DNA of 64,000 bases from an uncultured Bdellovibrionales bacterium (GTDB lineage: Bacteria; Bdellovibrionota_C; UBA2361; SZUA-149; CALKYB01): the NCBI GenBank assembly GCA_964510575.1, contig CAZECN010000005.1, forward strand, positions 18,518 through 82,517, given 5' to 3'. Position 1 is the stretch's first letter. Each line of letters opens with the position of its first letter. This document shows, piece by piece, positions 8,735 to 11,380 of this stretch. Made by a program: the position numbers and the translations under genes. The notes under the pieces were generated by a model. The model did no database searches and had not been told where the DNA came from. It was given only the letters and a program-made list of their open reading frames with translations.

Positions 8735-11380
8735 ATGAACATTAGTAAAGGTAAAAAACTCTTTCAAACCCGAGATAATGAGGGTTTTGAGGCTGTGCTT
8801 CCTGAGGGAGCACAAGATTCAGCTATTTTGTGGTCTCAGCGTCAAGCTTTGTCTCCTGATGCCGTGCCAGGTTTTGAAAAAAGAATCTCTTCTTTAGCTA
8901 ACTCTCGCCTACCTATCGCGAAGGTTATTGGTTTTGGGGTTGATAGTAAGAGTGAAGGTTGGGCCTTGACCGAAAAAATTAGCGGCGATGACCTTTTTGG
9001 CTTGAAGGGAAGTGAAAGGGAACGAGCTTTCGTAAGAGCTATACAAATTATTGCCGCTTTACATGAACAGGGTGTCTTGCTCGGTGATATTTGTGATGAT
9101 TCTTTTGTTGTGAATGAGTCGGGAGAGGTTTTTCTTCAAAGCTATTTCGGTGGATTTGATTGTACTCAAGAAAAAACGGCAATGATTCCTCCAAAGGAAA
9201 CATTGTACTACTTAGCACCGGAGCAGCGTACAGGAGGAACACCTTCTTATAGTAATGATGTCTTTTCCTTAGGTGTTCTTGGCTATAAAATGTTTACTGG
9301 TAGCTATCCAGGAAAAGCAAATGGAGTGGAGGGTGCTGATAGCATCACTGCCAAAAGTGTAGCACCATCCAGTGTCGATCCTTCGATTCCTGAGTGGGTT
9401 GATGATGTCATTAGCGATTGTCTGATTTCTGGACAGGCTGGACGGTTCCGTGATGCCTCTAAATGTGTTGAAATTGTAAAGAGGGCTTTGCAGTCGGGTG
9501 AACGTCCTGGAAGTAAAGGGAAGTGGGCTCAGGTTTTGTCTGACAAGATTGCAGATGCTGAGCCCCAGATTGGTGAACCTGACTCCCAGGCTAATCAGGC
9601 GGTTCTTGTGGATCCCCCAAGTGCGGGAGCTGAAAATATATCAGAGAGATCTTCTACAACAACTACTGGCCCTAATAGTTCAGCAATCGCTCTTGGAAAT
9701 GGCCCTGACGAACTTCCTGAAGAAAGATCATTGGTTAAAATGACTGATCCTGAGTTCGCTTTGAAAAGTCGTCGAGTGGATAATGACTTGGTTAGAAAGT
9801 CTAAATCTGAAGTTGGTAGTCGACAGAAGCAAAAAGCAAAAGCTGAAAAAGATTTTTATGAAGACGAGATGCAAGGAAGACAGTCTTCTTTTAGTTTTTT
9901 TGACATTTGGCGCATAGTTTCAACCTTAATATGTCTTTCTATTGTAGCGGCATTGGGATTGTTTACTTATAGGTTTATTTACGGAGATCTCAGTACAACT
10001 AAACTAGGCCAGGGGCTGGAAATTGATGTTGAAGCTGCGCCTCCGGCATTAAAGCCGTCCATTAACGATCTAAAGTCAGCAGCGGTCTCTGTTGAGGTTA
10101 AAAAAGATGCTTTGAAAAGAATTGCCGACTTTGACGATCCAGTATCGCATAACGTTTTAGTTTCTGTAATTTTGGAATCTGAGGATCCAGAATTGAAGAA
10201 ATTGTCTCGCGAGTTAGTTATTGATCGTCTCTCCAGGGGAGGCTTAAGTCGTTCAGCTAATTTGTTGGAGAATTGGTTTGTCAATATGAACAAGAGCAAG
10301 CGAAATGTTGATCAACATTTGGTGAATGTCTTGCGTGTTTTTGATCAAACTATTCCATTAGAAGCAAGGCAGTCTCGCTTGAGAGGTCTTTATGAAGAAA
10401 TGCCAGAGTTTGGCCTTCAATTCGCGGCTGCGCTTGGATTAGATACTGGTGGAGATGAGTCTTTTACTCCTTTACTTAGAGCTTTTGTTAAAGAAAAGTT
10501 TGGTTATTCTGATCTTGAAGATAAGAGTGTTTATGCCATTATTCTGTCCGAAGAATCTCTATTGAATCAGTTTGAAGGGGATCTTAAGAGCTTTCTGAAA
10601 GAGCTATCCGCCAACGATTTGGCTTGGGGAATGCTTTACTTAGCGAGGCAGAATAGCCTCACCCTTAAAGACGTGGCCAAGGAAGTTGGAATTAGAGAGG
10701 TAGTACCAAGATTTCAATCTGAATTTGTGGAGATGCTTTCGAAGTTGGATCATTTTCCTTTAGAGAAAAATGTAAAACTAGCGCTGGTTCGAGGTGCTCG
10801 TGGCGAAACTAAGCTAGATGACGTGAATGTTATTGGTCGATGGTATGATCAAAATGCGGAGCGTGCTCTGTTAGTGATCTGTGCTATTTCGAAAGATAAG
10901 AGGGTCAAAGAGCATGCATTTTCTACTTTAGCTGGACGGACTTTGAGTGCCGAGCCTGCTCGAACTTTAGTTGGTTGGGTTAAGAGCAAATATTGGGCTA
11001 GAAGGTCGCGTTTGGCTACACCAGTAGCTATTTTGTCTCTTCAAGACGTTTCTACTGAGCAAGATTTGCAAACTGCGTTTGATCAGTTGGCCCCGTATTT
11101 TTCTGGAAATACAATTTTTGATACTTTTGATAAGATCGGCGACTCCGCTCTAACTTTACTAGCACTAAGGAGAGTAGGTGCATCATTGCCAAGCCCGGTT
11201 TTAATTGAGCTACTTTCTAACAAGAAAAAAGAGGTTCGAATGGAAGCTGTAAAATCCCTTAGTGGCAGAAACGATTTAGCTGTTCTTCACGCGATCACAA
11301 AAGCGCACAGGAAAGAGAAGGATCCAGATGTTTTAGCCGCTTTTGAGGAACATCACTGGAATACTAGGGATCGATCTTAG
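8735..11380 (+). CDS. Membrane Hanks-type (pseudo)kinase with C-terminal HEAT/ARM-like repeat domain
   Basis: Kinase C-lobe motifs are retained (YLAPEQ, DVFSLGVLGYKMFTG, RFRD). The glycine loop and VAIK Lys are not recognisable, HRDLKPxN reads LGDICDDS and DFG reads YFG. One TM helix (IVSTLICLSIVAALGLFTY) sits mid-protein. The C-terminal ~460 aa are helical with HEAT-like repeats (KKEVRMEAVKSLSGRNDLAVLHAI...DPDVLAAFE). Confidence 0.6.
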   Translation: MNISKGKKLFQTRDNEGFEAVLPEGAQDSAILWSQRQALSPDAVPGFEKRISSLANSRLPIAKVIGFGVDSKSEGWALTEKISGDDLFGLKGSERERAFVRAIQIIAALHEQGVLLGDICDDSFVVNESGEVFLQSYFGGFDCTQEKTAMIPPKETLYYLAPEQRTGGTPSYSNDVFSLGVLGYKMFTGSYPGKANGVEGADSITAKSVAPSSVDPSIPEWVDDVISDCLISGQAGRFRDASKCVEIVKRALQSGERPGSKGKWAQVLSDKIADAEPQIGEPDSQANQAVLVDPPSAGAENISERSSTTTTGPNSSAIALGNGPDELPEERSLVKMTDPEFALKSRRVDNDLVRKSKSEVGSRQKQKAKAEKDFYEDEMQGRQSSFSFFDIWRIVSTLICLSIVAALGLFTYRFIYGDLSTTKLGQGLEIDVEAAPPALKPSINDLKSAAVSVEVKKDALKRIADFDDPVSHNVLVSVILESEDPELKKLSRELVIDRLSRGGLSRSANLLENWFVNMNKSKRNVDQHLVNVLRVFDQTIPLEARQSRLRGLYEEMPEFGLQFAAALGLDTGGDESFTPLLRAFVKEKFGYSDLEDKSVYAIILSEESLLNQFEGDLKSFLKELSANDLAWGMLYLARQNSLTLKDVAKEVGIREVVPRFQSEFVEMLSKLDHFPLEKNVKLALVRGARGETKLDDVNVIGRWYDQNAERALLVICAISKDKRVKEHAFSTLAGRTLSAEPARTLVGWVKSKYWARRSRLATPVAILSLQDVSTEQDLQTAFDQLAPYFSGNTIFDTFDKIGDSALTLLALRRVGASLPSPVLIELLSNKKKEVRMEAVKSLSGRNDLAVLHAITKAHRKEKDPDVLAAFEEHHWNTRDRS

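Follow-up and report, generated by a model that had tools for sequence, protein, structure and literature searches.

Bacterial pseudokinases have barely been studied, and only two, EssB/YukC and MviN, have known roles. EssB/YukC of the Bacillota Type VIIb secretion system (T7SSb) combines an N-terminal pseudokinase with a single transmembrane (TM) helix and a helical ectodomain, and binds the FHA domains of YukB/EssC (10.1101/2020.05.09.085852; PMC12599244). MviN of M. tuberculosis (Rv3910, ActPs3 family), when phosphorylated by PknB, recruits FhaA (PMC12599244, PMC11898655). A recent atlas distinguishes seven pseudokinase families, and none of them has been tied to a Gram-negative secretion system. 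The pseudokinase considered here is encoded in a stretch of 64,000 nucleotides, hereafter the window, from an uncultured Bdellovibrionales bacterium (assembly GCA_964510575.1, contig CAZECN010000005.1, forward-strand positions 18,518 to 82,517). Its gene (8735-11380, +; 881 amino acids, aa) encodes a bitopic membrane protein predicted to consist of a pseudokinase domain, a linker, a TM helix and an alpha-solenoid, and stands where a Tad gene set adjoins genes resembling those of Type III secretion systems (T3SS). The reading that we favour, with a probability of about 0.55, is that this protein is a non-catalytic receptor or scaffold subunit of a threonine-phosphorylation switch serving a Tad plus needle-less T3SS-like machine. 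An earlier annotation made from the DNA sequence alone (the original prediction) had already described the gene as a membrane pseudokinase, and its claims are taken up where the evidence bears on them.

Judged by sequence and predicted structure, the cytoplasmic N-terminal domain (residues 1-264; 8735-9526, +) is a member of the Hanks-kinase superfamily, closest to the bacterial PknB-like kinases. The Pfam Pkinase profile matches its C-lobe only (residues 94-237), at 30.7 bits against a gathering score of 31.7 and with degenerate catalytic residues, and the best sequence match in the PDB is PknA of M. tuberculosis (E 1.7e-10, phmmer). When a 150-member profile of the family described below was compared with the PDB, StkP (E 4.6e-35) and PknB (E 7.5e-33) were matched over the whole kinase domain, including the N-lobe (profile positions 7-313). 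The AlphaFold2 (AF2) model has the canonical topology of an N-lobe and a C-lobe, with strands β1-3, helix αC, strands β4-5 and a helical C-lobe. Stk1, PknA and PknB head the Foldseek matches, with E-values of ~1e-8 to 1e-7 and target-normalised TM-scores of 0.60-0.69 over ~275 columns. The kinase fold expected by the original prediction is borne out by all three approaches, the model, Foldseek and the family profile. The C-lobe landmarks that it listed are likewise all found in the 881-aa open reading frame (ORF): YLAPEQ at 159-164, DVFSLGVLGYKMFTG at 175-189 and RFRD at 237-240, among which lie the retained APE (161-163) and the Arg of subdomain XI (R237). A recent origin by duplication of the Ser/Thr kinase (STK) encoded in the same cluster was considered and rejected, as the two share only 25% identity over the C-lobe and the pseudokinase is no closer to the STK than to PknA.

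Residue by residue, the catalytic apparatus is largely replaced. In the alignments, the GFGGMS Gly-loop of PknB lies opposite (F/L)(Q/S)-T12-R13-x-x, PknB K40 opposite W33 at the β3 Lys position (codon 8831-8833, +) and PknB E59, the αC Glu, opposite R50; H-R-D has become L116-G117-D118, the catalytic-loop Lys C120 and PknB Asn143 S123, and the DFG Asp aligns with S136/Y137. The original prediction had reported the loss of GxGxxG and of the VAIK Lys and the change of DFG to YFG, and the alignments, with an S-T-R Gly-loop and W33, agree with it on each count. It had also picked out LGDICDDS as the catalytic loop, correctly, but overlooked that the HRD Asp is retained there as D118 (codon 9086-9088, +). 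Of the features on which catalytic competence depends (β3 Lys, αC Glu, GxGxxG, HRDxKxxN and the DFG Asp), the catalytic Asp alone survives. The full-length activation segment includes T148, which aligns with PknB T171 and PknA T174, both sites of phosphorylation in the activation loops of those kinases. T148 stands in the context T-A-M-I, with Ile at +3.

These substitutions are not peculiar to the window. An exhaustive HMMER scan of 1.84 billion representatives of 50%-identity clusters places at least 286 clusters in the family at E<=1e-30, overturning the impression of a tiny family that a word-indexed search, with its five relatives, had given. The best 150 relatives are almost all 780-900 aa long, and the match covers both halves of the protein. 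Residue counts come from an alignment of these best 150 of at least 286 clusters, the denominators varying by column. Trp occupies the β3 Lys position in 113 of 128 members (consensus V-L-L-W-L-L-R) and Arg the αC Glu position, that of R50, in 122 of 132, while R13, within the S-T-R that stands for the Gly-loop, is conserved in 103 of 130. HRD is replaced by (C/L)-G-D, with the Asp kept in 126/134 and invariant among close relatives. The catalytic-loop Lys position holds Cys or Ser across the family and the Asn position Ser or Thr (133/135), giving catalytic-loop 9-mers of the form (C/L)GD(I/L)(C/S)xxSF; the DFG Asp position holds Gly, Ser or Ala, in a region that reads G(V/L)(L/M)G. The original prediction had allowed that the catalytic residues might be present in shifted positions. 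A β3 Lys, catalytic-loop Asn or DFG Asp, whether in its canonical place or shifted, occurs in 0/150 representatives. The result is a 'dead' signature, STR...W...R...GD...S...G, sharply defined in a large family. By the sequence definition a pseudokinase has lost at least one of the VAIK-Lys, the HRD-Asp and the DFG-Asp (10.1101/2025.01.12.632604), and here the first and last of these are gone in 150/150 representatives.

Canonical Mg-ATP phosphotransfer by the domain is predicted to be impossible, because the β3 Lys, the αC Glu, the Gly-loop, the Lys and Asn of the catalytic loop and the DFG Asp are replaced family-wide. As D118 is kept and R13 and R50 lie at the nucleotide site, a metal-independent binding of nucleotide is conceivable on sequence grounds. 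The family itself, to judge from its alignment, is ancient and kept by selection, and its degeneration is family-wide rather than a local decay, since the degenerate pattern is itself conserved in the 150 representatives and the family counts at least 286 clusters, with loci of 33-64% GC. Genes of the window for DUF2959, DUF4124 and heptosyltransferases are of families that may point to a gammaproteobacterium. One of the other loci (L014, see below) carries CsrA-FliW, and the family therefore spans more than one class.

Behind the pseudokinase domain comes a disordered, basic, Ser/Thr-rich juxtamembrane linker (residues 265-388; 9527-9898, +), in which the predicted local distance difference test (pLDDT) score of the AF2 model is <50 across most of residues 265-387. 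Its length in the family ranges from 31 to 123 aa, and its median Ser+Thr fraction is 0.18 against 0.13 overall. The single TM helix (residues 389-416, hydrophobic core 392-414; 9899-9982, +), identified by hydrophobicity and in the AF2 model, is the sole hydrophobic segment in 102/130 full-length relatives. An excess of Lys and Arg is seen on its N-terminal flank in 96 of 130 full-length relatives and on its C-terminal flank in 12 of 130. From this bias and the positive-inside rule we infer an N-in/C-out orientation, in which the pseudokinase domain would be cytoplasmic and the C-terminal domain periplasmic. The latter is a predicted HEAT/ARM-like alpha-solenoid (residues 430-881; 10022-11377, +). 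In the model the C-terminal 457 aa are all-helical, with 28 helices and a pLDDT of 95.3, and Pfam HEAT_2 matches residues 810-870. The domain classes with the HEAT/ARM alpha-solenoids, which are recognised by stacked repeats of two or three helices and by similarity to HEAT profiles or structures. The original prediction of one central TM helix followed by helical repeats, some of them HEAT-like, is fully supported, and the periplasmic location, which it had wished to see decided, is the one predicted from the charges flanking the TM helix. The most conserved columns of the family in the solenoid are W703, E861, D863, N846 and Y870. Structure comparison found no specific structural relative of the solenoid, and there is no sign of ring-forming motifs.

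The gene starts after a 54-nt gap from sctV, which ends at 8680, and is separated by 21 nt from an FHA gene that starts at 11402, the same spacing as originally given; a scan of these junctions found no promoter or terminator signal above chance. The upstream neighbour encodes an export gate of the SctV/FlhA family (6476-8680, +; FHIPEP E 1e-165), which scores under both the hrcV and the FlhA equivalog cut-offs. The downstream neighbour is a tail-anchored FHA protein of 463 aa (11402-12793, +), with an N-terminal domain (1-100), FHA domains at 150-189 and 264-309 and a TM segment at ~434-463. It has no periplasmic domain, and the tail anchor stands at the end of the protein in 7/7 homologues. 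It had been called a triple-FHA protein; two of the FHA domains can be verified, but the third, at the N-terminus, is not detectably FHA, having no Pfam match and aligning with the protein's own FHA domains at E 0.3-0.5 only (hhalign). These ~100 N-terminal residues (11402-11700) are the most conserved part of the protein (MFALEIDFxDG...AHVVIxGAA...ELR), and may be a degenerate, SctD-like FHA domain or something new. The pseudokinase gene had further been placed between sctV and sctJ. It does follow sctV directly, but two FHA genes intervene before sctJ, the second encoding a soluble protein with a Zn-ribbon, a low-complexity region and a canonical FHA domain (13021-14142, +). The FHA domains of the cluster proteins retain the GR / SxxH / NG signatures of phosphothreonine (pThr) binding.

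The active partner kinase and the phosphatase for which a search had been suggested are encoded on the contig of the window, upstream of its first position. Within the window, the scan took in the non-nested ORFs of >=100 aa with the exception of three, as well as several shorter ones, and found neither an active kinase nor a PP2C phosphatase among them. A longer version of the contig, found via TadB and here called L012, extends 5.6 kb further upstream (window position = L012 position - 5621) and carries, ~0.7-4.4 kb before the window start and in this order, a PP2C phosphatase tail-anchored by a C-terminal TM segment (L012 1223-2194), a 358-aa low-complexity protein ending in an FHA domain (L012 2229-3305) and a canonical STK of 527 aa with a C-terminal tail anchor (L012 3371-4954), followed by TadZ. 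The STK has GTGSMG, VAMK, HRDLKPEN, DFG and SPE, and scores 199 bits with Pkinase against 30.7 for the pseudokinase. The phospho-toolkit of the cluster comprises this tail-anchored STK, the tail-anchored PP2C and three FHA proteins. Beyond their tail anchors the STK and the PP2C have almost no ectodomain; among the kinase-fold proteins of the cluster, a large extracytoplasmic domain is peculiar to the pseudokinase.

Around the pseudokinase gene, the Tad set (TadZ, Flp, CpaB, CpaF, TadB, TadC) and the T3SS-like set (SctV, J, O, Q, R, S, T, U) run contiguously on one strand from 1 to 20673. The first comprises TadZ/CpaE, cut by the window start and ending at 935 (+), the Flp pilin (1248-1433, +), CpaB (1807-2739, +), CpaF (2822-4351, +), TadB (4380-5399, +) and TadC (5401-6324, +); a CpaC/RcpA secretin is absent between CpaB and CpaF. 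Beyond SctV and the FHA genes, the second continues with an SctJ-like inner-membrane ring lipoprotein (14352-15275, +), an SctO/FliJ-like protein (15665-16141, +), an SctQ/FliN-like protein (16156-17214, +), SctR (17211-17888, +), SctS (17889-18158, +), a putative SctT, named by position only (18168-18887, +), and SctU, of 248 aa with the membrane part only (18901-19647, +). The scan of the window ORFs, which left out 38942-39394, 39458-40072 and some ORFs of <100 aa, turned up no SctC, SctN, SctL or SctF and no full SctD, a small SctF being hard to detect. The only ATPase found locally among the scanned ORFs is CpaF. The core set of an injectisome (SctC, D, J, N, Q, R, S, T, U and V plus SctF) is incomplete in the window cluster. 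This is no classical injectisome: Tad pilus genes are joined in it to a T3SS-like set that lacks secretin, needle and SctN.

The same context recurs elsewhere. It was compared in nine independent lineages, L010 and L012 being taken as one, with loci of 33-64% GC. SctV stands directly before the pseudokinase in eight of the nine (L002, L003, L004, L007, L010/L012, L014, L015 and L016) and a tail-anchored FHA gene directly after it in six (L002, L003, L004, L005, L010/L012 and L015). After STK-TadZ-Flp-CpaB-CpaF-TadB-TadC-SctV-pseudokinase, the order that recurs, there usually come the tail-anchored FHA protein, another FHA protein, SctJ, SctO and SctQRSTU. The run CpaB-CpaF-TadB-TadC-SctV-pseudokinase is present in L002, L003, L007, L010, L014, L015 and L016, the last of which starts at CpaF; the L004 contig starts inside SctV. 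Downstream, two FHA genes and then SctJ follow the pseudokinase in L002, L003, L004 and L010, and SctQ comes later on those contigs that extend far enough. L015 has the same two FHA genes and then ends, and L005 has two FHA genes with an unannotated 237-aa gene in the place of SctJ and no SctV upstream. A canonical STK precedes TadZ in the loci with upstream sequence, L010, L012 and L014 (the kinases of L012 and L014 being 61% identical), and L002 has a matching tail-anchored C-terminus. The nine lineages support the conclusion that the link between the pseudokinase and the secretion cluster is no local accident.

The genes of the array have diverged to very different degrees. Identity between genomes (L002/L003 against the window, 42% and 52% GC) is 81-82% for TadZ, 70% for CpaF, 43-44% for SctV and ~30% for the pseudokinase. 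These uneven rates may reflect different constraints, or an exchange of the Tad part between lineages. In L007 (12790-13296) and L014 (12382-12843) the pseudokinase is followed by a gene for a thioredoxin- or AhpC-TSA-like protein of ~150-170 aa, which in L014 overlaps the pseudokinase stop codon.

How the proposed switch would work can be outlined from gene order and analogy. The solenoid would sense or contact something in the envelope, for example what state the Tad machine is in, the SctJ ring or cell contact. As the STK and the PP2C have no ectodomain and, of the kinase-fold proteins, the pseudokinase alone reaches the periplasm, the pseudokinase is cast as the receptor or adaptor half of a pair: its kinase-like domain would pair with the cluster STK and be trans-phosphorylated by it, at T148 and/or in the Ser/Thr-rich linker. 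T148 is a candidate site in that T-A-M-I conforms to an FHA-type motif with Ile or Leu at pT+3. Through their FHA domains, the phosphorylated sites would recruit the neighbouring tail-anchored FHA protein, which may represent an SctD-like cytoplasmic module without the periplasmic ring domain, and the soluble FHA proteins. FHA recruitment would then control whether the SctV export gate assembles or is active, and the PP2C would reset the switch. The original prediction had spoken of a phospho-signalling or scaffold module dedicated to a T3SS, and of this the link to the cluster and the presence of partner enzymes stand; the machine served, however, is a Tad plus needle-less T3SS-like one and not a classical injectisome.

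Several observations weigh against this outline. Its steps from sensing to gating are inferred from gene order and analogy. T148 is matched by Thr or Ser in only ~59% of the 150 representatives, so it offers no universal docking site. L007, L014 and L016 have SctV and the pseudokinase next to each other but no FHA gene beside the pseudokinase, from which it follows that the tightest link of the pseudokinase is to SctV and Tad and not to FHA. Finally, the conserved HRD Asp, with R13 and R50 at the nucleotide site, may leave room for a non-canonical activity.

The strict linkage to SctV, which persists where no FHA gene adjoins, also speaks for a purely structural role, which we regard as a serious possibility though rather an unlikely one. 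The protein would then be a phospho-independent core subunit, EssB/YukC-like or a 'split SctD', whose solenoid replaces the SctD ring or bridges the SctJ/SctV gate to the Tad platform, and it would be bound constitutively to the tail-anchored FHA protein, by way of the N-terminal domain or the FHA domains of the latter, phosphorylation having no part in this. The cluster encodes no SctD that has a periplasmic domain, and in all seven homologues the FHA protein ends in a tail anchor. Of the cluster proteins, the pseudokinase, SctJ and CpaB alone have a large periplasmic domain. Phospho-independent binding also has a precedent in the EssB/YukC pseudokinase and the FHA domains of YukB (10.1101/2020.05.09.085852). 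Those FHA domains, however, lack the pThr-binding residues in YukB/EssC (10.1101/2020.05.09.085852), whereas here they are kept and an STK and a PP2C are encoded in the cluster. With ~30% identity against 70-82% for CpaF and TadZ, moreover, the pseudokinase behaves more like an adaptor or sensor than a core ring component, and ring-forming motifs are not evident in a solenoid that has no specific structural relative. Both the signalling and the structural reading stand, the signalling one being preferred.

That the domain is instead an atypical active enzyme or a nucleotide switch, binding ATP or another nucleotide without Mg through R13 (β1-β2 loop), R36 and R50 (αC) and using D118 for phosphotransfer or some other reaction, seems improbable. 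The conservation of D118, R13 and R50 at the frequencies given above is in its favour. So are published bacterial pseudokinases that keep the HRD Asp and whose arginine-rich pockets have been modelled with ATP (PMC12599244). ATP binding by such pockets has been proposed for pseudokinases of the DLHK/ULK4 type (PMC12599244). ULK4 and DLHK offer analogies for nucleotide binding, as proposed, and SelO and SidJ for repurposed kinase folds, as shown. Against these stand the Trp in the place of the β3 Lys, the loss of both metal ligands (Asn and the DFG Asp) and of the catalytic-loop Lys, and a Gly-loop without the glycine pattern; with a canonical kinase in the same cluster, catalysis need not reside in the pseudokinase. 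An incidental neighbour, or a decaying kinase gene with no role in the cluster, would account for a Pkinase score under the gathering cut-off and for family records named only 'hypothetical protein' or 'serine/threonine protein kinase', but is effectively refuted by the degenerate motif set and full-length architecture kept in at least 150 divergent representatives and by the synteny with SctV, Tad and FHA genes across loci of such different GC content. The switch subunit remains the preferred reading.

Some further features of the array deserve mention. The SctU/FlhB homologue matches profile positions ~8-236 of ~345, its C-terminal autocleaving switch domain being apparently absent, and the orthologue in L010 is similarly short (262 aa). 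After sctJ comes a conserved 75-aa ORF without a Pfam match (15319-15546, +; 61-63% identity in L002/L004), whose start, 'LTNREQAVVALAVLLDG', we take to recall helices of the FliG_N/MgtE_N type; genes of 74-79 aa hold the same position in L004, L005 and L010. Past SctU, a 168-aa ORF without homology (19759-20265), which could encode a secreted substrate, precedes a TPR class-II chaperone resembling LcrH/SycD (20278-20673, +). Just beyond the cluster lie two genes of the sigma-70 family (21455-22333, -; 22745-23524, +), one with FliA/WhiG-like regions, and these may be cluster-specific regulators.

What is new here is the pseudokinase family, its conserved signature and its location, in many uncultured bacteria, at the point where the two parts of a fused Tad/T3SS-like array meet. 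Two machines and phospho-signalling parts come together in one apparent operon-like array, and the signature and its context beside a kinase, a phosphatase and FHA readers yield a testable model of a pseudokinase receptor that gates a secretion machine. The concepts of a pseudokinase with an FHA partner in a secretion machine, and of a gate made of STK, PP2C and FHA proteins, were already known. The arrangement had been called unusual, which is so only in part, as it has precedents in EssB/YukC with the EssC FHA domains of the T7SSb and in MviN with FhaA. No prior description of a cluster with SctV, CpaF, FHA and kinase genes was found in the literature searched, which is not proof of absence.

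The family, as far as sequence goes, appears to fit none of the seven families of bacterial pseudokinases published so far. Nearest to it is the GLW family, compared here by its published description, which has G-L-W in place of HRD (PMC12599244) and has lost the HRD Asp in 99-100% of its members (10.1101/2025.01.12.632604). The anchoring in the membrane by a single C-terminal TM helix and the Leu/Trp at β3 (here VLLWLLR) fit it, and a proteobacterial provenance may be common to both; neither a genomic context nor a function has been published for the GLW family. Placement in the GLW family was rejected: G-L-W occurs in 6/150 representatives, five times at β3 and never at the HRD position, and it is the Asp at that position that this family keeps.

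With EssB/YukC the protein shares its domain plan, its place as a component of a secretion machine and an FHA-bearing partner, here a putative one. A sequence relationship was not detected, the only Pfam matches at E<=0.01 being Pkinase and HEAT_2. EssB/YukC has a truncated activation loop, a beta-swap dimer and an ectodomain of ~140 aa, whereas the protein described here has a full-length activation loop, the HRD Asp and a 450-aa solenoid, and its nearest solved relatives are PknB, StkP and PknA. In contrast to EssB/YukC, it also belongs to a Gram-negative Tad/T3SS-like system, with pThr-binding residues in the FHA domains and an STK and a PP2C in the cluster. Membership of the EssB/YukC family was rejected, the likeness being architectural only. 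MviN resembles it in joining an intracellular pseudokinase to a TM segment and an extracytoplasmic domain, in a bulky hydrophobic ATP pocket and, on the switch proposed here, in an FHA dock made when an active Hanks kinase phosphorylates it (PMC12599244, PMC11898655). It differs in being actinobacterial and in controlling cell-wall synthesis rather than secretion, and also in its motifs, VALT / LSIDHPSR / Y-- (PMC12599244) against LLW / (C/L)GDxxxxS / G(V/L)(L/M)G here.

Among T3SS proper, the Hanks kinase PknD of Chlamydia acts on CdsD, an FHA-bearing inner-membrane T3SS component (PMC2765968). PknD, however, is active, and CdsD, as a full SctD, includes a periplasmic region; that system has neither a pseudokinase nor Tad genes. 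That the pseudokinase is itself the missing SctD was rejected, as it has no FHA domain and no ring-building domain and its periplasmic part is an alpha-solenoid; the adjacent FHA protein shares with SctD the FHA part and the TM segment, and the periplasmic domain is missing.

The nearest counterpart of the array as a whole is found in M. xanthus, where the Tad-like Kil system and a secretin- and needle-less T3SS* are functionally coupled and the Tad clusters contain many FHA proteins (PMC8460266, PMC12075869, PMC10433427, PMC3459982). The 'Myxo' type of secretin- and needle-less T3SS, which the T3SS-like set of the window resembles, keeps its ATPase (PMC3459982), and according to one review only the Cystobacterineae have Kil and T3SS* together (PMC12428579). 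The two systems of M. xanthus occupy separate loci, T3SS* includes SctN, SctL, SctD and SctI, and the cited papers mention no kinase or pseudokinase; here the Tad and T3SS-like genes are contiguous with the pseudokinase at their junction, and SctN, SctL and a full SctD were not found in the window. The contiguous array, which looks like a fused counterpart of Kil and T3SS*, may be of more interest than the pseudokinase itself. A bolder and decidedly tentative proposal, which is more probably wrong than right, is that Tad and a secretin-, needle- and ATPase-less T3SS-like gate form a single composite nanomachine in diverse uncultured bacteria, controlled by STK, PP2C and FHA proteins, with the pseudokinase as its transmembrane coupler, the solenoid standing in for the SctD ring or linking gate and pilus. 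It would then be a fused counterpart, outside the myxobacteria, of the Kil plus T3SS* predation apparatus of Myxococcus.

In the Type VI secretion system (T6SS), the secretion cluster includes genes for a Hanks kinase, a PP2C and an FHA protein, which provide a post-translational gate triggered by contact or from the envelope. The periplasmic sensor domain there is part of the active kinase, and no pseudokinase is known to be involved, whereas here the active kinase is tail-anchored without an ectodomain and it is the pseudokinase that holds the large periplasmic domain. The example at hand is the threonine-phosphorylation pathway PpkA/PppA/Fha1 of the H1-T6SS of P. aeruginosa, as cited in PMC8460266. 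The switch proposed here would follow the logic of PpkA/PppA/Fha1 with the sensor and catalytic functions split over two proteins, and likewise that by which MviN, PknB and FhaA act together.

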